Shown in pieces: positions 2,156 to 28,817 of a DNA stretch of 64,000 nucleotides. How positions within the stretch are numbered: position 1 is the stretch's first letter; every line of letters begins with the position of its first letter. This stretch comes from an uncultured Porphyrobacter sp. GTDB taxonomy: Bacteria; Pseudomonadota; Alphaproteobacteria; Sphingomonadales; Sphingomonadaceae. The notes beneath the pieces are model-generated. The model was not told the DNA's origin. It saw only the letters and a list, made by a program, of their open reading frames with translations, and searched no databases. The translations under genes and the position numbers were made by a program. The stretch lies in NCBI GenBank assembly GCA_964352245.1, contig CAYGQX010000006.1:7396-71395 (forward strand), given 5' to 3'.

Positions 2156-3640
2156 TCATTGCGGCGCGCTCGTAAAATGTGAAACCAGCTTGGAGAGGCC
2201 AACCGAATTGGATCCCTTGACCAGCACGGCATCGCCGTTTGATAGGCCAAATTGTTCCAGCGCCTCGATTGCATCCCCAACGCTTTCGCAATGCTGAAAG
2301 CTGGGCGTGTTGCCAACCGAGCCTGCACTCGCTTTCCCCAATTGGTCGGATAGCTGTGATGCAAGGTCGCGCATCTCTTCACCCAATAAAATAGCAAAGT
2401 CGATGCGCGCATCCGCCATTGGTCCTGCCAGTTGGCGATGGAATTTAGGGCCAAAATCCCCCAATTCTTTCATGCTGCCCAATACAGCGATACGGCGCGT
2501 CGCTGGCGTTTGGCCAAGGCTTGCCAATGTGGCGCGCATCGATGCGGGATTGGCGTTGTAACTTTCATCCACCAGCAAGGCTTTGCCGCCAGCCGCGCCG
2601 ATCTGGAAGCGCGCGCCGCGACCTTTAAGGCCTCCCATTTCCGCCATGGCAAGACCAGCACTGGCAAGATCGCCGCCGCTTGCGCGAATGGCAGCCATCA
2701 CGCCAAGCGAATTGTTGATCCAGTGTTCGCCCGGCTCTGAGATGGTGTAGCACAATCGCGTATCGCCAAGATCAGCCGTGACAAGCGATCCGCCATTGTC
2801 CTGTGGGATCGCATCAAGCAGGCGCACATCGGCGTTTTCGCTGCGCCCAAAAGTGACGATCTTCACGCCCAGCGCGCGGGCATGGCCGATCAGCCGATCG
2901 GCCATATCGGTATCGGCGGGAATGATCGCGGTGCCGCCTTCTACAAGACCAGTGAAAATCTGTGCTTTTTCATCGGCAATGGCTTCAATCGAGCCCAAAT
3001 TTTCTATGTGTGCAGGCGCGATAGTGGTGACCATGGCGACATGGGGGCGGACGTGATCGGCCAATGGCGCGATTTCGCCTGCGTGGTTCATACCCATTTC
3101 AAACACGCCAAAGCGCGCGCGCGCTGGCATTCGTGCAAGGCTGAGCGGGACGCCCACGTGATTGTTATAACTGCGCACTGAGCGATGCGAGGCACCGCGG
3201 CTGGCGCAGTCAAGGCTGTTAAAGATCGCCTCTTTTACGCCTGTCTTACCGACCGAACCTGTCACAGCTATTCGAACTGCTTCGCTGCGGTCGCGCGCGG
3301 CATGAGCCAGATCGTGAAGCGCCTTTGTGGTGTCTTTTACAAGCACGTGGGGGAAATCAACGGGGCGATCGACAATCGCGGCAACTGCGCCTTTGGCAAA
3401 AGCTGTGGGGATGAATTTGTGCCCATCCATCGCTTCGCCTTTAAGCGCGACAAACACATCGCCAGGGCGCACATCGCGGCTGTCCATTTCGACACCGGCT
3501 GCTTGAAACTGATGGCTCGCAGTGCCGCCTGTCGCTGACGCGATCGCAGCCGCATCCCAAAGCGCCATGGGCAATGCATCGCGGGCATCGATTGGCCAGG
3601 CGTGGAGCAATTTGTGGATCGAGTGATTGACAGCGTTCAC
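2156..3640 (-). CDS. murF: UDP-N-acetylmuramoyl-tripeptide--D-alanyl-D-alanine ligase
   Basis: AVTGSVGKT, SYNNHVGVPLSL, DESYNANPASM, VLVKGSNSVGL; GTG start overlaps murE stop. Confidence 0.97.
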   Translation of the reverse strand: MNAVNHSIHKLLHAWPIDARDALPMALWDAAAIASATGGTASHQFQAAGVEMDSRDVRPGDVFVALKGEAMDGHKFIPTAFAKGAVAAIVDRPVDFPHVLVKDTTKALHDLAHAARDRSEAVRIAVTGSVGKTGVKEAIFNSLDCASRGASHRSVRSYNNHVGVPLSLARMPARARFGVFEMGMNHAGEIAPLADHVRPHVAMVTTIAPAHIENLGSIEAIADEKAQIFTGLVEGGTAIIPADTDMADRLIGHARALGVKIVTFGRSENADVRLLDAIPQDNGGSLVTADLGDTRLCYTISEPGEHWINNSLGVMAAIRASGGDLASAGLAMAEMGGLKGRGARFQIGAAGGKALLVDESYNANPASMRATLASLGQTPATRRIAVLGSMKELGDFGPKFHRQLAGPMADARIDFAILLGEEMRDLASQLSDQLGKASAGSVGNTPSFQHCESVGDAIEALEQFGLSNGDAVLVKGSNSVGLSKLVSHFTSAPQ

Positions 3641-8906: not shown

Positions 8907-9061
8907 CTGAACCAATCCCCGCATTCGCTTTTGCGGGTGCACTCCCTGCTGCCCGCTTCTTGCCAAGACATGCCTTCCCCGTAGCCACCCCCGCGCGAAC
9001 GAGAGCAGCGCGCAAACCCTTTTGGGGCGCGCACGGCAAACAAACATGTTTGATGGAAGCC

Positions 9062-9307: not shown

Positions 9308-10123
9308 TCACCGCGCGAATGCAAAATCAATCAAGGCTGCCATAGCTTCAAAGTTCTCACCAGCCATTTCGCGATGCTCAAACACAGCCGCATCGCCGAA
9401 CAAGGTCGCGTGCCCATCCCCAATCGCGCACCGAACACCATAACCATCACCGAAAGAAACGCACGAAGCTGCCTCAGGATCAATTACATTCCACCGCGAT
9501 CCGACTTCGACAGAAACTTGAGCCTCGCCAAGCGCGATTTTGGCCCTGCCCTGCTCAATCCTCGCAGGTTCATCAAATTCCACCTCAAGCCCCCAACGCG
9601 TTACAACCGGCGGAATGGAAAAGAGCGAGGTATCCAGAGGCCTTCGTGGGTCACCCAGCGGCAAATCATAATGCCCCGTCAGCAGAGGATCGAGTACAAT
9701 TAGCGCTTCTCCCCCGTCGCGCACCCACTTATCAAGTGAGACATTATCCATAGGCGTCAACACGCGCGGCTGGATGATTGCTAGATGGCGGAGCCCGCTA
9801 AGAGGAGCATCCATTGCCTCCTCATCGATTGGTGACAGCGTGTCGAGCGGCATGACTGTATAGCAATTGCTCAGCGCTCTGGCTTGCCATGGACGCTGGG
9901 TTTTTCCTTGAGCAAAATCTGCGATCTCTGTCCCCAGCTCCCAATTCAGTGGCAAACTGGTCATTAGCCCCAAGACAGGAGGAGGTTCGCCCGCATTGCA
10001 TGGCATGTGCGAGGCTTCATCGCTTCCAGGCCCGGGATCATGATGGCTGTGTTCGGAAGTGTTTGAGCAAGCCGCAAGCCATGCCGTCAGGACTAAACCA
10101 ACCGCCTTACGGCTCGGACTCAT
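9308..10123 (-). CDS. Exported/lipoprotein-like protein, possibly GldG/ABC-auxiliary-like
   Basis: ATG at 10123 (MSPSRKAVGLVLTAWLAACS, lipobox-like LAAC) overlapping the upstream stop; LGLMTSLPL, LAIIQPR, WVRDGG and DP(L)L motifs. Confidence 0.6.
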   Translation of the reverse strand: MSPSRKAVGLVLTAWLAACSNTSEHSHHDPGPGSDEASHMPCNAGEPPPVLGLMTSLPLNWELGTEIADFAQGKTQRPWQARALSNCYTVMPLDTLSPIDEEAMDAPLSGLRHLAIIQPRVLTPMDNVSLDKWVRDGGEALIVLDPLLTGHYDLPLGDPRRPLDTSLFSIPPVVTRWGLEVEFDEPARIEQGRAKIALGEAQVSVEVGSRWNVIDPEAASCVSFGDGYGVRCAIGDGHATLFGDAAVFEHREMAGENFEAMAALIDFAFAR

Positions 10124-24329: not shown

Positions 24330-26276
24330 TTATGCTGTCCTCGCGACATTGTCTCTGGTCGTATCCTTGCTCACCAATTCCATAAGCTCACCGGCTTTCA
24401 TCGGCTTTCCTAAGAGATAGCCTTGCACGAATTGGGCGCCAGCACGTTTGGCCATAATCAGCGAAATCTCGTTTTCCACCCCTTCGAGAAGACAATTCAC
24501 CCCCAGAACTCGGGCCATTCCGACAAGCGATGTCAGAATTTTCTCCGCCATTGGATCACCAGGGTTCTCAACGAAAGATTTGTCCACTTTTAGGCGTTTT
24601 ATCGGCAACGAGCGCAGATAATTGAAGTTGGAATAGCCAGTCCCGAAATCATCAAGCGCAATCGAAAAGCCCAATCGGGACAAGCGCTCCAAATTGGCGG
24701 CAGCCTTTTGCATGTCTGCCATCATAGCTGTCTCTGTTACTTCAAACTCTACCAAAGCAGGATCAACATCATATTCGCGGATTATTTTAATAATCGCATC
24801 AATAACTGGGTCAGACAGCAAATCATGGCCTGAAAGATTGATCGAAATCGGGATCATGGTCTTCCAAGATGATAATTCGGCCATGGCTTTTCTTACCACG
24901 ACCAGAGTGATATTTGCTACCAAACCACTTTCTTCAGCAATTTGAATAAAGCGCTGCGGGGGTACGGGTCCGACGTCGGGATTGGTCCAGCGAGCAAGAG
25001 CTTCCGCGCCGATAATCTCGTTGGTTCCAAGCCTAAACTGCGGTTGAAAAACTAAATGAATTTCGTCTTCTAATTTTGCACCTCGCAAAGCGTTTTCGAT
25101 CCGGAAGCGAATGCTAGACTGCTTTGCATGGGATTTGTCGAAGACGACAATCCTGTTCTTGCCCTGCTTTTTTGCAACCATCAGCGCGTAATCTGCCTTG
25201 CTGATCTGGGCCTCTACTCCTTGACCCGCATCGCACCTGACACATCCAACAGAGCAGGAAATCAGGACCTGGCGACCATCGACGAGATATGGTGTTGCGA
25301 CATTATCTAGCAACCGTTTGCAACGCTCAACAATACTGCCCTGGGCCACGTCACCGGAAACAATCATATTGAACTCATCGCCGCCCATTCGACTGACATG
25401 AGTATCACCTTCAGAAAAAGATCCTAAGCGGTCCGCTACCGCCATAAGTAATTGATCACCAACCAAGTGGCCGTGAATATCGTTGACGGCTTTGAAACCA
25501 TCCAAGTCAATCAAGATGAGCCATCCCAACGCATGCTCGCCAGCTTCAGGTTCACTGCCAACGCTTGATTGGCCAATCAACCTGTTGAACTCACCGAAAA
25601 ACGCCCGTCTGTTTGGAAGCCCGGTCAGGCTATCCGATAGTGAGACTTCGCGCAGATCAGAACTCATCTGTTCGGCATTTGAAAGCTCGTCTCTTACTTT
25701 AAGGTTCGCAACTGCAATTCGCGATATTGCCTTTCGCAAATAAAATGCAATCGCGAGCGACGACATAGAAGTTGCAAAAGTAAGATACCCGTAGGCAGCC
25801 AATGTTGCGCTATCAAGCTGACTTGAAAAGCTCCCCATCGCTGCAAATGAGAGTGCGATCGCAAGAAATGATTGTCTAAAACTAGTACTTGCGAGAGCGA
25901 AAAGCATCGACATTATTATGAAATAAGTGAGCTTTTCGGATAAAAATCCTATGTTAAGCGCAACATAGACATTGAGGATAACGACCGTATTCATGGCAAG
26001 CAACATGCATTCTGTCATTAGTGCAGAGCTTGATGAGCGCATTCTCCACGCAAAATAGCTTGCTAAACCCGCAGCTATGATGGTCAATGACTGGAGTCTG
26101 ACAAAGTCGGAGCCATTTGACATACTAAGCCAGTTAAGCACCAGCATGATGGCGTAGTAGACAAAGTACACGACAAAATAACCGCGCAGAATTGGGAAGT
26201 ATATCTCCCGCACTGCCGATTCGACGATCCTGGAGTTCGGCTCCGGATCAACGTTTGTTCGTGTCCTCCAAAACAT
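24330..26276 (-). CDS. Membrane-bound diguanylate cyclase/phosphodiesterase (TM-GGDEF-EAL)
   Basis: About 5-6 TM segments; DSLTGLPNRR, DLDGFKAVND, intact GGDEF; AEALARW, DDFGTGYS, EGVE, QGY. Confidence 0.93.
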   Translation of the reverse strand: MFWRTRTNVDPEPNSRIVESAVREIYFPILRGYFVVYFVYYAIMLVLNWLSMSNGSDFVRLQSLTIIAAGLASYFAWRMRSSSSALMTECMLLAMNTVVILNVYVALNIGFLSEKLTYFIIMSMLFALASTSFRQSFLAIALSFAAMGSFSSQLDSATLAAYGYLTFATSMSSLAIAFYLRKAISRIAVANLKVRDELSNAEQMSSDLREVSLSDSLTGLPNRRAFFGEFNRLIGQSSVGSEPEAGEHALGWLILIDLDGFKAVNDIHGHLVGDQLLMAVADRLGSFSEGDTHVSRMGGDEFNMIVSGDVAQGSIVERCKRLLDNVATPYLVDGRQVLISCSVGCVRCDAGQGVEAQISKADYALMVAKKQGKNRIVVFDKSHAKQSSIRFRIENALRGAKLEDEIHLVFQPQFRLGTNEIIGAEALARWTNPDVGPVPPQRFIQIAEESGLVANITLVVVRKAMAELSSWKTMIPISINLSGHDLLSDPVIDAIIKIIREYDVDPALVEFEVTETAMMADMQKAAANLERLSRLGFSIALDDFGTGYSNFNYLRSLPIKRLKVDKSFVENPGDPMAEKILTSLVGMARVLGVNCLLEGVENEISLIMAKRAGAQFVQGYLLGKPMKAGELMELVSKDTTRDNVARTA

Positions 26277-26576
26277 TGAATCGGCGCTAACGAGCGCAAG
26301 TTAACATAATGTTCTTTACTGAGAAATTGCTTGGCATCTGCCAAACTGCACAGCCTTATTGGCGATTTCTCATTTTCCTACTCAGCCTTTTTGTGCCCAA
26401 TGCAAAAGCCTCTCTCCGCTTTGCCCATCCAAAAGCTGGGCATCGCATCTTGTTTGTTGCTTCTTCGCCAGGGGGTGCAGCCGTCGAACCCATGAGGCAG
26501 TCCAATGATTGCGGAATCAAAAACGCCCGAACCCTGCTCGGCCCTTTCATCACTTAGAATGAGAAAGGTATAAGAC

Positions 26577-27320
26577 ATGGCTAGCGCAGCGCCTTATCTC
26601 AGGCTCATAGATCGCATCGTCAGCATGATCGATAAGCATCCGCTCCGTGCGCTATTGATGCTGCCAGTTCTTACAGGTGCGGCCACAATCGCCCTTGCAT
26701 TCTGGCAAGCGCCTACGCTGATTGGCGCCCATGAGGCACGCAAAGACCGCGAATATCGGCAGACGATCCTGAGAGAAGAACGCGAGCGGCGCGCTCAGGC
26801 GCACGCCATTGAAGTGGACGAGCTTGTTCGTCGCCGACTGCTCGCGCTGCGAATTCGTTCCTCTTCCAGCCGAGCAGTGATCCGCGCTCTGGTGTTTGAC
26901 ATCGATCAGTCAGAACAGATTGTCGGAATTGTTGATGTCTTTGAAAGCATGGATATTCGAACCGAGAAAACAGGGCTGCGCACGCGCCCTCTCCCGCTGA
27001 GCGCAATACGGCGCTCGCTCAATTACATGCTAGCCAGCGATGTCCCCCGATGCATTGCCCGTAATGTAGAGGATCACGAAGATGCGGAGCTGAGGGATTT
27101 TATGCATGCCGGTCATCTAAAGGCCTCTGTCGCTTGTCCTCTGAGGACGCTGGATGGCCGACCAATTGGACTATTGGCAGTCAGCATCCGAACGCCGATC
27201 GAGGAGAATGACCTGGTCCAACCTATGACCCGCGATGCAGCGCTAGAACTCGGCGCCGTGCTCACTGAAGCAGCTTCCTTCAAAGCGGTTATTACTCAAA
27301 AGCAAGAGGTCTTCCAATGA
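26577..27320 (+). CDS. Single-TM protein with GAF-like C-terminal domain; candidate holin
   Basis: RBS GAAAGG; amphipathic N-terminus, TM about residues 25-43, GAF-like tail SVACPLRTLDGRPIGLLAVS; ATGA overlap with the lysozyme gene. Confidence 0.7.
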   Translation: MASAAPYLRLIDRIVSMIDKHPLRALLMLPVLTGAATIALAFWQAPTLIGAHEARKDREYRQTILREERERRAQAHAIEVDELVRRRLLALRIRSSSSRAVIRALVFDIDQSEQIVGIVDVFESMDIRTEKTGLRTRPLPLSAIRRSLNYMLASDVPRCIARNVEDHEDAELRDFMHAGHLKASVACPLRTLDGRPIGLLAVSIRTPIEENDLVQPMTRDAALELGAVLTEAASFKAVITQKQEVFQ

Positions 27321-27940
27321 ACTCGAGAACACAAGTCTTTGACACCGTGCGAAAATTGATGGGTCGTGGCTTTCGACAGAAAGAGGTAGTCTCTCTGGAC
27401 GCGGCACTCGACGACATCGGCGAAGCTTGTTGCCCAAAGCACATGACCGCAGATAATCAACTTACAATCGAGGTGGTGGGGAAAGCAGGTGTGGAGCTTA
27501 TCAAAAAGTTTGAAGGCTGCGCACGCAAGCGTTCAGACGGAATGATCGAGGCTTACCCTGACCCTGGTACAGGAGGAGAACCTTGGACAATCGGTTGGGG
27601 TGCAACGGGAATGGGTTTAAATGGACAAAGGATCGGCCCGGGTACTTTGTGGTCACAGGCAGAATGCGATGCGCGTCTGGAGAGCGATCTAATCCGATAC
27701 TCACAAGATGTTGCGCGCGCCATTGGTGAAGCGCCCACCACGCAGAGCCAATTCGATGCGATGGTGAGTTTTCATTATAATACCGGCGCTATTGCCCGCG
27801 CAACGCTGACAAAAAAGCATATTGCCGGCGATTATCCCGGCGCTGCTCGAGAATTCGACCGCTGGAACAAAGCAGGTGGCCGAGTCCTTAAAGGGTTGGT
27901 GCGTCGCCGTCGCTCTGAAAAAGCCCTTTACCAAACATAA
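27317..27940 (+). CDS. GH24 phage-type lysozyme (endolysin) with an N-terminal extension
   Basis: LIKKFEG (catalytic Glu), AYPDP, WTIGWG, QFDAMVSF.YNTG, W.KAGGRVLKGLVRRR..E..LY. Confidence 0.93.
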   Translation: MNSRTQVFDTVRKLMGRGFRQKEVVSLDAALDDIGEACCPKHMTADNQLTIEVVGKAGVELIKKFEGCARKRSDGMIEAYPDPGTGGEPWTIGWGATGMGLNGQRIGPGTLWSQAECDARLESDLIRYSQDVARAIGEAPTTQSQFDAMVSFHYNTGAIARATLTKKHIAGDYPGAAREFDRWNKAGGRVLKGLVRRRRSEKALYQT

Positions 27941-27962
27941 CGCGCCTGAGGGGCACACGAAT

Positions 27963-28817
27963 TCAGATTGTCTTGCTCGGTTTGAATGGCGTTGCCTGAC
28001 CATCCTTGCTCAGACCATCAGAGATCGTATCACGCTTCTGCTCGCGGGGGGCAGTTGCCTCAGCAATCAAGCGGGATTGCTCTTCACCGTCCATTCTCTG
28101 CCAACCATCGCGGCCCAGCTTTTCAAGCGGACGATATCGAACTTTGTATTGCATACGCGGCGAGCCATCGACCCAATAGCCGAGATACACATAAGGCAAT
28201 CGATCGGCCGCTGCACGGCGAACGTGATCGAGGATGATGTAGTTTCCGAGGCCCGCACGACCTTCATACGAAGGATCATAGAATGAATAAATCATCGACA
28301 GTCCATCGCCTTGCCGGTCGGTAAGGCATGCGCCCACGAGTTTACCGGGCTGACCGCCTTCGCCAGGCTCCCGGTATTCCACCAAAGTGCTTGTGACTGG
28401 CGTGTGTTCAACCATGTCAGCATAATCGAGCTCATCCATGGCCGACATTCCGCCATCAGGATGCCGGACGGCAAGATACCGAGAAAGCAGGTCAAATTGC
28501 TCTTCGGTCGCCCAGGGGCGGCACTCGGTCACAACCAAATCCGAATTGCGTTTGATGTCCCGCTTTTGAGTGCTGGAAGGCTTAAATTCGCTCGCAACGA
28601 CACGAACTGAAACGCAAGCCTGACAGTCAAGGCAGCTTGGGCGGTAGGCGACTGTCTGACTCCGACGAAACCCGATCCGGCCAAGAGCTTCATTAAGCTG
28701 GTCCGCATGAGCGCCTTTTAGCTCAGTGAAAACCTTACGTTCCTGCTTGCCAGGAAGATACGGGCACGGCGCAGGGCTTGTCACAAAGAAGCGGGGGAAG
28801 CGGATCGGGGCCGTCAC
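27963..28817 (-). CDS. bpt: Aminoacyl-tRNA--protein transferase (ATE-like; Asp/Glu leucyltransferase Bpt)
   Basis: [47 protein letters not shown]. Confidence 0.92.

Follow-up and report, generated by a model that had tools for sequence, protein, structure and literature searches.

The window (the whole 64,000-nt stretch of DNA that was analysed) contains at 26577-27940 a pair of genes encoding a membrane protein, here named X, and a GH24 lysozyme. The pair, which belongs to one group of marine Erythrobacter, has the appearance of a lysis switch that the host has kept and controls tightly. X is a probable T-like (class III) holin, of predicted activity, which was added to an ancient lysozyme locus.

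The X ORF (26577-27320, + strand) encodes a 247-aa candidate T-like (class III) holin or lysis regulator. X contains a single hydrophobic segment, the TM helix of residues 25-43 (26649..26705, + strand), with a Kyte-Doolittle value of 1.95; 24 aa precede it as the N-tail and 204 aa follow it. Residues 6-20 (26592..26636, + strand), predicted to be cytoplasmic, are strongly amphipathic (muH 0.76, a value equalled in 7 of 2000 shuffles). X has two cysteines only, C159 (27051-27053, + strand) and C187, the second within a C187-P188 pair (27135-27140, + strand). Both cysteines are invariant family-wide, and the further invariant residues of the X family are M151, P188 and G198. The length, the amphipathic N-terminus, the TM and the two Cys are thus as the initial annotation had described them.

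The hydrophobic segment is kept in 34/34 X-family members, with a variable sequence. The strongest conservation of the family is found in the predicted periplasmic domain and not in the TM; the predicted cytoplasmic N-terminal segment is also conserved. A K/R cluster (PRR/PKR) lies directly before the TM family-wide. An argument from the positive-inside rule had been made for a C-out orientation of X. It holds across the family, where K/R are in excess N-terminally of the TM and acidic residues lie C-terminally of it, but not for the window protein alone, which shows a tie of 3 K/R on either side. The family charge bias, the two invariant Cys and paralogue P0034, which carries a signal/lipobox-like N-terminus in place of the N-tail and TM, point to C-out. 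The predicted topology of X is therefore N-in/C-out with a periplasmic GAF domain. The modelled strands 160-163 and 183-190 bear the two invariant Cys, and a C159-C187 disulfide probably staples the domain.

An AF2 model of X was built from 32 diverse sequences and replaced an earlier model from 19 close sequences (pLDDT 72.6). The new model had a pLDDT of 91.2 and a pTM of 0.74, with a helix at residues 2-20 and a GAF fold. From the model secondary structure and Foldseek, the GAF-fold domain covers residues ~95-235 (26859..27281, + strand). The GAF-like C-terminal domain proposed at the outset is supported by this model, whereas the Pfam GAF match (PF01590) on residues 148-212 reached 21.4 bits (E 3.7e-4), under the gathering cut-off of 22.4. 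Weak matches to the same family were found in 8 of 24 X-family members, with a best E of 3e-5. A Foldseek search of the PDB with X gave 234 matches at E<=1e-3, the top ones being nearly all GAF domains with T4 holin T chains interspersed. The best matches were GAF domains (E 3e-6, TM (target) up to 0.74). The periplasmic domain of T4 T (PDB 6PSK/6PXE chain T) came at rank 13. The proposed AlphaFold and Foldseek comparison thus returned both the GAF fold and T, the T4 T chains superposing on X at E 1.1e-5 to 4.6e-5, TM (target) 0.60-0.66 and rmsd 4.1-4.4 Å over 150-167 columns. Since the X fold is a generic GAF fold, the match to T is not T-specific and is no better than the matches to ordinary GAF domains. 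The GAF sensor domains (PF01590) are the best structural matches of the X domain but differ from it, because the X domain is predicted to be extracytoplasmic, has a TM anchor but no output domain, and bears two invariant Cys. In BFVD, X matched phage proteins of 200-260 aa over their full length. Among them were 'T holin lysis mediator' (Serratia PS2), 'Holin' (Proteus phiP4-3) and 'Class III holin' (Proteus Stubb); phages of Tenacibaculum and Polaribacter, crAss-like phages and jumbo phages are represented as well.

Pfam Phage_holin_T had no match to X or 24 family members at E<=1, and when the X-family profile was aligned by hhalign with a profile of 11 T-family members, the probability was 4.8% (P 0.008). 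A PDB profile search with X, which compares sequences, did not recover the T chains. Sequence homology between X and the T family is not demonstrable by these comparisons. The T4-holin architecture assigned to X in the initial annotation consequently stands at the level of fold, in the superposition on the T periplasmic domain and the full-length BFVD matches, but not at that of sequence homology. X and T4 holin T are similar in size (247 aa and 218 aa) and share an amphipathic N-segment, cytoplasmic in T and predicted to be so in X, a single TM and a large C-terminal alpha/beta GAF-like domain. Cysteines are present in this domain of both proteins, and a Cys-Pro motif is common to both in the hhalign alignment of 4.8% probability, although the two invariant cysteines of T, C175 and C207, and the C159/C187 pair of X occupy other positions. 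The t gene follows the tail-fibre genes g37-g38, as the phage X-family genes follow theirs. The differences from T are that the charged helix joining TM and domain is much longer in X, that the X family occurs in alphaproteobacterial phages and in one bacterial chromosome setting, and that no RI/RIII-like antiholin was identified for X. In T5-like phages and Vibrio phage Luma, a T-like holin gene lies directly 5' of an endolysin or M15 peptidase gene, and it overlaps the endolysin gene in two T5-like records. According to a 2026 paper (PMC12894885), the only class III holins known to have a periplasmic domain were close gpt homologues of T4- and T5-like phages. The same paper describes phiKZ gp142, a class IIIb holin outside the T family, which is encoded in a cassette with endolysin and spanins and whose soluble domain is regulatory. 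gp142 is single-pass N-in/C-out, as predicted for X; however, its large soluble domain is cytoplasmic and its periplasmic part small, while the X arrangement is T4-like (IIIa).

The X family is very small, with 18 representatives among 1.84 billion proteins, and a second word-indexed profile search for X relatives gave zero new members. When 50,697 phage genomes were searched by tblastn, X and P0033 found nothing and P0035 found Arash gp232, a distant X homologue, only. The proposed synteny survey returned 10 chromosomal X loci without a prophage; all the other members lie in lysis or tail regions of phages. On its sequence relationships, X is phage-derived. The linkage of homologues to lysins, on which the initial annotation had made its reading depend, was found: a wall hydrolase gene lies directly 3' of the X-family gene in 8 of 13 distinct contexts. 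These hydrolases belong to four unrelated families, GH24, M23, the PF11860 muramidase and Amidase_2, and the lysozyme adjoining P0030 has a SAR-like N-terminus. The phage X-family genes usually come right after tail-fibre-like genes, with overlapping stop/start codons. A position directly before wall hydrolases and usually after tail-fibre genes is typical of a holin. The cassette of prophage L001 contains i-spanin-like and lipoprotein o-spanin-like genes further downstream, and X as a spanin was ruled out by these separate genes.

The lysozyme gene (27317-27940, + strand) encodes 207 aa and matched PF00959 at 117 bits (cut-off 22.3) and the PHROG 7 endolysin at 1.4e-47. It comprises an N-terminal module of residues 1-35 (27317-27421, + strand) with the motif FDxVRxxxGRGFxQxEVxxLD and a catalytic domain of residues 55-205 (27479-27931, + strand). 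E66 (FEG), D82 and T91 (WTIG) align with the catalytic Glu/Asp/Thr of solved GH24 endolysins. No signal, SAR or TM segment was found in the lysozyme, whose top 19-residue hydropathy is 0.57; in this it agrees with a canonical soluble, holin-needing endolysin. The ORF coordinates bear out the reported ATGA, in which the stop codon of X overlaps the lysozyme start codon (27317..27320, + strand), and the 4-bp overlap is conserved in 7 of 9 orthologous loci.

The pair is flanked by a GGDEF-EAL gene (24330-26276, - strand) and by bpt (ATE_N/ATE_C; 27963-28817, - strand), both assigned by Pfam. Between the lysozyme gene and bpt, which converge, lies a hairpin (27940..27958, given without strand) that is possibly a terminator, and a terminator-like site was called there on the - strand. 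The other flank genes, assigned by synteny with Pfam-annotated orthologous loci, encode glnB, glnA, a PALP-family (PF00291) enzyme (labelled ilvA), an NAD-binding dehydrogenase and an amidohydrolase. The order glnA-X-lysozyme-bpt is common to 10 Erythrobacter genomes, while the GGDEF-EAL neighbour occurs at 4 of these 10 loci only (the window, L005, L006 and L008, the last from the cultured Erythrobacter sp. YT30). The window contains no ORF >700 aa, no phage- or GTA-like cluster by gene layout, and no spanin genes, with no lipoprotein/TM spanin pair beside X-lysozyme. No tRNA was found within 20-34 kb of the pair, and GC across the pair is 0.53-0.55 against 0.45-0.58 nearby. A prophage or integrated element at the pair was ruled out by the syntenic housekeeping flanks in 10 genomes, the lack of a tRNA and the lack of a GC shift; the flanks glnA, GGDEF-EAL and bpt without prophage had been correctly read before. 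Both X and the lysozyme are under strong purifying selection (dN/dS 0.02-0.1, lysozyme about 0.1, with saturated dS). The sequence was matched only in DNA runs of biofilm metagenomes.

Upstream of the pair lies a promoter-like element, CATTTTCCTAC-N12-TGCCCAAT (26371..26401, + strand), with the family consensus aaacCATTTTCCTACtcg.c....tTgTGCCTAAT. It stands out as an invariant block when 10 orthologous upstream regions are compared, the rest of which do not align, and it is present in a single copy per locus and in a single copy in the window. Transcription would be expected to start some 5-8 nt past the TAAT at 26398-26401. The element is also found 5' of 49 metagenome lysozyme homologues, where conservation extends to positions outside the search pattern. 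The pattern search gave 120 metagenome loci in total, consisting of the 49 lysozyme loci, 2 truncated copies and a remainder without extra conservation. As this remainder can be taken for chance matches, the element looks private to the lysozyme locus. By eye, it did not fit the consensus sequences of CtrA, LexA, sigma-54, sigma-32, sigma-28 or EcfG.

Downstream of the element, GCCTC (26408..26412, + strand), the predicted anti-Shine-Dalgarno arm of a leader hairpin by conservation and MFE fold, pairs in the MFE fold with GAGGC (26494..26498, + strand), which is both the 3' arm of the hairpin and the Shine-Dalgarno sequence of a short uORF. GCCT is 98-100% conserved in 58 loci and is absent from the search pattern, and the GAGGCA column is conserved in the upstream alignment. 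In 19/19 leaders of loci without X, the same GCCTC-GAGGC pairing is predicted to hide the lysozyme SD. Rfam gave no match at the locus to a known RNA or riboswitch. The uORF has 22 codons, MIAESKTPEPCSALSSLRMRKV (26505..26573, + strand), and stops 3 nt before the X start codon. In 9 of the 10 loci that bear X, the uORF has 17-28 codons and either stops 3 nt 5' of the X ATG or overlaps it, with no conservation of the peptide; at the tenth, L010, X begins at the uORF-equivalent ATG itself. From this arrangement we infer that X is coupled to the uORF by termination-reinitiation.

At least 49 metagenome loci have the glnA-bpt synteny, the conserved promoter, the predicted RBS-hiding hairpin and the lysozyme, but no X. 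Their contigs have 55-73% GC and are of Sphingomonadales type by gene similarity. In the ten Erythrobacter genomes, X lies between the control region and the lysozyme. The older unit is thus probably the lysozyme alone, with X added in one Erythrobacter lineage. A crude NJ tree without support values places the X-linked lysozymes in the midst of chromosomal lysozymes from X-less loci, with the prophage lysozyme outside, so X was probably inserted and the lysozyme not replaced. Two X-less loci are nested among the X-linked lysozymes in this tree and may reflect loss of X. The fact that at least 49 loci keep a signal-less lysozyme without X indicates that the lysozyme can function without X. The domesticated lysis pair proposed in the initial annotation is upheld as chromosomal, syntenic and under purifying selection, but probably not as one orphan module, since the lysozyme is solitary elsewhere and X is an add-on.

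We propose that X is of the T4-holin-T type, with an amphipathic N-terminus in the cytoplasm, a single TM, and a GAF domain that a long helix connects to it on the periplasmic side. Upon a trigger, the private promoter would fire and the RBS-hiding 5' hairpin would open. Ribosomes would first translate the short uORF, re-initiate on X and then cross the ATGA overlap to the lysozyme gene. X would build up in the inner membrane until, on reaching a threshold, it opened holes or collapsed the membrane potential. The signal-less GH24 lysozyme would then get to the wall and the producing cell would lyse. The periplasmic GAF domain may time this lysis through self-association or a partner, as RI acts on T4 T. 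That the domain gates lysis by sensing a signal, as the initial annotation suggested, is a speculative idea. Candidate purposes of the lysis are release of gene-transfer-agent particles, eDNA or vesicles, and abortive infection. Taken as a whole, a phage-derived T-type X behind an ancient control region, with a uORF relay to the lysozyme and cell lysis as the outcome, is a tentative reading to which we give slightly less than an even chance. A wider reading, in which proteins with a TM and a periplasmic GAF domain would form a large superfamily of T-like (class III) holins or lysis timers across phages of many hosts, too diverged to be recognised by sequence, Erythrobacter would have captured one of them and joined it by a uORF relay to an ancient Sphingomonadales lysozyme gene under promoter and RNA-hairpin control, and the lysozyme could be the lineage's missing programmed-lysis (e.g. 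GTA-release) enzyme, is distinctly unlikely in our estimate.

X could instead regulate lysis, as an antiholin or periplasmic timing sensor whose GAF domain modulates either a holin encoded elsewhere or the lysozyme, in its access or its activity; we regard this as somewhat unlikely. In three phage relatives the endolysin gene is followed by canonical-looking, holin-like genes for small multi-TM proteins (L001, 125 aa; L035, 98 aa; L159, 62 and 66 aa), so X need not be the hole-former and could be a regulator. However, no other holin-like gene was found beside the cassette in L004, L018 and L161, and X is the sole membrane protein of the window operon. On the 164-kb phage contig L015, signal-anchored and TM-anchored X paralogues occur in tandem and resemble holin/antiholin pairs, but the architecture and fold of X fit holin T and not the antiholins of T. 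The peak of conservation in the periplasmic domain rather than in the TM is consistent with a regulator, as are the genomes that have the lysozyme behind the same promoter and no X, in which another release route must exist.

A role for X as part of the virion or tail, or in the assembly of tail fibres, with the chromosomal copy as a leftover, is very improbable. The phage genes do overlap tail-fibre-like genes at their start, and Arash gp232 lies amid structural genes and was found in purified particles with 9 unique peptides. T4 t is likewise 3' of tail-fibre genes, though, and the Arash particle proteome comprises 116 proteins with RNA polymerase beta the most abundant, so that carry-over of gp232 is likely. 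The chromosomal X is moreover under strong purifying selection and coupled to a lysozyme with no tail genes, and a TM anchor and a predicted periplasmic domain with invariant Cys are unlike a cytoplasmically assembled virion part. A membrane-anchored, predicted periplasmic protein beside a wall hydrolase might also be an immunity or inhibitor protein against it, in effector-immunity style. This we hold to be highly improbable, because a specific inhibitor would not cover four unrelated hydrolase families; in addition, the cytoplasmic segment of X is conserved, the hydrolase has no export signal, secretion-system genes are absent near the pair, and PADLOC gave no match for X or the lysozyme. 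Extremely unlikely, finally, is an ordinary C-in cytoplasmic GAF signalling protein, tied for instance to the divergently transcribed GGDEF-EAL gene next door, with an incidental lysozyme link. The weak Pfam GAF similarity and the charge tie around the TM of the window protein would suit it, but most orthologous loci do not have the GGDEF-EAL neighbour, the remaining family members are all in phage lysis or tail regions, and the family charge bias and the signal-anchored paralogue favour C-out.

Host-kept chromosomal holin-endolysin genes serve a cellular purpose in type 10 secretion and in explosive lysis by the pyocin Hol/Lys. The X-lysozyme pair differs from these systems in that no cargo gene (chitinase, toxin or pyocin) or spanin lies beside it. 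The neighbours being glnA, GGDEF-EAL, bpt and a PALP-family gene in place of an adjacent cargo and spanin, assignment to a type 10 secretion system was rejected. Explosive lysis is cited in PMC13236601. The RcGTA genes rcc00555-rcc00556 of Rhodobacter capsulatus and other Rhodobacterales form a two-gene endolysin-holin locus outside a prophage, between housekeeping genes, with conserved host synteny and vertical inheritance (PMC5026251), and large RcGTA-like clusters were reported in all analysed Sphingomonadales (PMC5721377). The window pair is likewise outside a prophage and between syntenic housekeeping genes, a likeness of locus pattern. Unlike the RcGTA lysis locus, it has no GTA cluster within the window, its lysozyme is usually solitary with X lineage-specific, and its promoter-like element was found solely at the lysozyme locus.

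[quoted passage not shown] The family would then offer a second, independent system in which to follow the timing of membrane rupture by a periplasmic GAF-like domain. With the chromosomal X, nature has run a domestication experiment: a phage lysis gene came under a host promoter and an RBS-hiding hairpin, and strong selection has preserved it. The trigger of the solitary lysozyme locus could reveal regulated lysis in marine and biofilm bacteria, for example for release of GTA particles, eDNA or vesicles or for abortive infection.

The initial annotation had placed two overlapping forward-strand ORFs in the window, and ORF calling agreed with it exactly: X (26577-27320), the gene of a 247-aa membrane protein, overlaps a 207-aa ORF (27317-27940) by ATGA. 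X contains only one hydrophobic segment, residues 25-43 (Kyte-Doolittle 1.95), a strongly amphipathic N-terminal helix at residues 6-20 (muH 0.76, equalled by 7 of 2000 shuffles) and exactly two cysteines, C159 and C187, all as annotated. Pfam GAF matched residues 148-212 at 21.4 bits, slightly below the 22.4-bit cut-off. The second ORF is clearly the GH24 lysozyme that had been proposed (Pfam 117 bits; PHROG endolysin 1.4e-47), and its catalytic Glu, Asp and Thr aligned with those of solved endolysins. Hydropathy revealed no signal or hydrophobic segment in the lysozyme. Roughly 35 residues at its N-terminus form a module (FDxVRxxxGRGFxQxEVxxLD) that was found at 27317-27421 in the window, at 8922-9030 in the prophage locus L001, at 2914-3020 in locus L035 and in many loci without X; it is common to the window lysozyme, the prophage GH24 enzyme and the PF11860 muramidase beside P0024, an X-family member. 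Pfam and PDB gave no match to this module. Some X-less lysozymes (L085, L147 and L154) have another N-terminus, with an amphipathic helix.

An initial model of X, for which 19 close sequences were used, was of middling quality (pLDDT 72.6); 32 diverse members gave a model with pLDDT 91.2 and pTM 0.74. In this second model, the TM helix spans residues 22-43, between a helix at 2-20 and a long one at 45-94, and an alpha/beta domain comes after. The domain matched GAF domains in PDB (best E 3.4e-6, TM-score up to 0.74); the periplasmic domain of the T4 holin T, present in complexes with the antiholin RI, stood at rank 13 (E 1.1e-5, TM-score 0.60-0.66, rmsd 4.1-4.4 Å). Among predicted viral structures, the top matches were uncharacterised phage proteins of 200-260 aa, aligned over their full length (E 2.9e-11) and in some cases named GAF-domain proteins, and lower-ranked matches were annotated 'T holin lysis mediator', 'Holin' or 'Class III holin'. 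The suggested T-holin architecture with a GAF fold was thus borne out as to the fold and the match to T, but the fold is generic, and sensor GAF domains matched at least as well as T. The X-family profile was compared with that of a T-family alignment, made from records of T4-like, T5-like and Vibrio phages. The two were collinear over 197 columns, with the TM segments matched to each other and likewise the invariant Cys-Pro of either family, at a probability of only 4.8% (P 0.008). Pfam and PDB sequence searches found nothing linking X to T. This does not establish X as a member of the T family; what it has in common with T is its architecture, its fold and the position of its gene.

The X family is tiny. 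A word-indexed search of 5.8 billion proteins returned 20 matches, every one of Erythrobacter type, and an HMM run exhaustively against 1.84 billion cluster representatives found only 18. All HMM-found members have 230-271 aa and the common layout, except a 62-aa fragment and the 193-aa P0034. Five positions are invariant: M151, C159, C187, P188 and G198. The charges flanking the TM segment tie in the window protein, which on its own does not give the C-out topology that the positive-inside rule had been said to suggest; across 34 members, K/R is richer on the N-side, often as PRR or PKR right ahead of the helix, with a neutral to acidic C-side. This bias, the signal/lipobox-like start of P0034 and the invariant Cys pair favour a periplasmic GAF domain. 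That X is instead a cytoplasmic GAF signalling protein is a minor alternative.

Beyond the clade of the window, all recoverable contexts of the family are viral. In a prophage of an Erythrobacter genome (L001/L014), which also holds a chromosomal X copy, a 50% identical homologue follows transglycosylase, tail-fibre and virion genes and precedes genes for a GH24 lysozyme, a 125-aa membrane protein, a Tad2-like protein, an i-spanin-like protein and a lipoprotein o-spanin-like protein. The Tad2-like gene (anti-Thoeris type; L001 9962-10378) lies within this lysis cassette, between the 125-aa membrane protein gene and the spanin-like genes. In an IMG/VR myovirus contig (L004), X stands between tail-fibre genes and an M23 peptidase gene. 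P0022 is preceded by a 950-aa ORF and followed by an M23 peptidase and an i-spanin-like protein; P0024 is preceded by a 716-aa ORF and followed by the PF11860 muramidase, a 98-aa protein with about three hydrophobic segments by sequence and a 140-aa TM protein. Downstream of P0021 come an endolysin with PG_binding_1 and Amidase_2 and then small two-TM proteins; its contig also has an integrase. P0029 and P0030 are each followed by a GH24 lysozyme; that beside P0030 (L161 968-1495) has a Gly/Ala-rich hydrophobic N-terminal segment immediately before the catalytic EWEG motif and is a putative SAR-type endolysin, so that X-family genes would pair with soluble and SAR endolysins alike.

A wall hydrolase of one of four unrelated families thus immediately follows the X-family gene in 8 of 13 distinct contexts. 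Four other contexts lack a following hydrolase, namely those of P0033, of P0036, of P0034 and its paralogue, and of gp232 of Salmonella phage Arash; the X-family genes there sit among late or structural genes, much as t of T4 follows g37-g38. The P0027 context was counted in neither group. On a 164-kb phage-like contig (L015 8001-9276), two X-family paralogues overlap in tandem: P0034, with the signal/lipobox-like N-terminus MRLILMMILPWLLVAC (LLVAC), and a TM-anchored protein of 236 aa. By analogy with a holin and its periplasmic antiholin, of which the tandem is reminiscent, they may form such a pair. Acb1- and Acb2/Tad1-like genes are also present on this contig.

The neighbours of the window pair are housekeeping genes, GGDEF-EAL and bpt by Pfam, and glnB, glnA, a PALP-family (PF00291) enzyme gene labelled ilvA and others by synteny with annotated orthologous loci. 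No tRNA was found near the pair, Rfam gave no match at the locus, and the gene layout of the 64 kb is nowhere phage- or GTA-like, which confirms the prophage-free flanks described initially. The order glnB-glnA ... X-lysozyme ... bpt-ilvA is kept in the window, in Erythrobacter sp. YT30 and in eight MAGs or uncultured isolates, ten genomes in all. The glnA-to-X and lysozyme-to-bpt segments vary, with GGDEF-EAL, other genes or TamA/TamB. The former is a hotspot, with GGDEF-EAL in the window, L005, L006 and L008 and other genes elsewhere; since the gene for this 648-aa protein with a multi-TM N-terminal region (24330-26276, reverse strand), divergent from the X operon, is there in only 4 of 10 orthologous loci, a functional link is unlikely. 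At L011 7311-7445, the last 45 glnA codons are duplicated (87% identical) 1.2 kb downstream of intact glnA, which looks like an insertion footprint at the glnA 3' end. About 6.5 kb separate the lysozyme gene from bpt in L010-L013, and L002, the same site as L013, shows TamA/TamB there. Synonymous sites are saturated in both genes among orthologous loci, and the low dN/dS (about 0.02-0.1 for X, about 0.1-0.16 for the lysozyme) indicates that selection maintains both.

Upstream, the ten loci share a single alignable block, CATTTTCCTAC-N12-TGCCTAAT, in one copy per locus. A scan of metagenome contigs with this pattern gave at least 120 loci, at least 49 of which (within L039-L158) have a lysozyme homologue, 50-76% identical, immediately downstream; no X gene was present on any of these lysozyme-bearing contigs. 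The consensus of the element at window 26371-26412 and these loci is aaacCATTTTCCTACtcg.c....tTgTGCCTAAT.....cGCCTc, and positions outside the search pattern are conserved, including GCCT at 98-100%. The remaining pattern loci were rejected as chance matches, their extra positions being unconserved, except two truncated copies of the locus; among the metagenome matches listed, no genuine site lay away from the lysozyme locus. The X-less contigs are Sphingomonadales-type (GC 55-73%) and show the same glnA/bpt synteny wherever they reach, many being too short to show it. In 19 loci with the GRGF module and an assignable start, the lysozyme ORF begins about 30-37 nt past the element. In 19 of 19 distinct X-less leaders (L039, L047, L060, L065 and 15 others), GCCUC base-pairs with the Shine-Dalgarno GAGGC/GAGGU in the minimum-energy fold, with covariation in the stem extensions, so this hairpin would likely sequester the RBS. 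The conserved element, the X-less loci and the leader pairing point to an ancestral, widespread unit of a private promoter, a predicted RBS-hiding hairpin and a solitary signal-less lysozyme.

In nine of the ten X-bearing loci, the hairpin-controlled SD-AUG starts a uORF of 17-28 codons, unconserved in peptide, whose stop codon either overlaps the X start or precedes it by 3 nt (L005-L013 at about 9890-9997); in the tenth, X begins at the hairpin-controlled AUG itself. In the window, the predicted arms GCCTC (26408-26412) and GAGGC (26494-26498) are separated by an insert of about 80 nt with internal structure, and the uORF (26505-26573) ends 3 nt before the X start codon at 26577, all on the forward strand. 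This arrangement points to coupling by termination and reinitiation, beginning at the lysozyme's ancestral start site, and, with the conserved ATGA overlap, to a relay from promoter through hairpin, uORF and X to lysozyme. In a rough, unsupported tree, X-linked lysozymes fall among X-less chromosomal ones and the prophage lysozyme lies outside, which suggests that X was inserted before a resident lysozyme gene and not imported with a new one. The shared FDxVRxxxGRGFxQxEVxxLD module could have supplied homology for such an exchange. Loss of X elsewhere may instead explain the distribution, the tree being without support. The domesticated holin-lysozyme module first envisaged is thus correct in that the pair is chromosomal, syntenic and selected, but the lysozyme unit appears older and X-less, with X added on the evidence of that tree.

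Stopping short of calling it probable, we tentatively favour X as a T-like class III holin. Build-up of X in the inner membrane would be followed by permeabilisation, through which the cytoplasmic lysozyme would gain access to the wall; assembly or timing would be under the control of the periplasmic GAF domain. A role for X as lysis regulator or antiholin is the main rival and seems less likely to us; it draws on an extra small multi-TM holin-like gene in three phage relatives, on the same lysozyme being kept in X-less genomes and on the signal-anchored X paralogue. Lysis cassettes show mix-and-match hydrolase partners, and pairing with four unrelated families argues against a specific enzyme inhibitor and hence against X as an immunity protein, a minor alternative. 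Also minor is a virion protein: Arash gp232 (L038 4923-5579), the sole member found in a cultured phage, owes its label 'structural protein' to a proteome of particles, but 116 proteins were listed there, RNA polymerase beta being the most abundant, and the label may reflect membrane carry-over.

As to the purpose that lysis might serve, the nearest parallel is offered by the endolysin-holin locus of RcGTA, likewise an orphan pair in conserved host synteny (PMC5026251). RcGTA-like clusters are reported for all analysed Sphingomonadales (PMC5721377); however, the promoter element turned up only at the lysozyme locus among the matches listed. Caulobacter, in contrast, has a route without holin (PMC13236601). 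The window sequence is present in biofilm metagenomes; this would fit a release of eDNA or vesicles as the purpose of lysis but proves nothing. By the account of a 2026 paper (PMC12894885), the only known class III holins with a periplasmic domain were close homologues of gpt from T4- and T5-like phages, and the X family would therefore be new as a structurally equivalent family, by its predicted model, without sequence relation, from alphaproteobacterial phages, with one member fixed in a bacterial chromosome downstream of a host control region. A separate feature, which merits its own study, is the solitary, hairpin-gated lysozyme locus that many Sphingomonadales-type contigs conserve.
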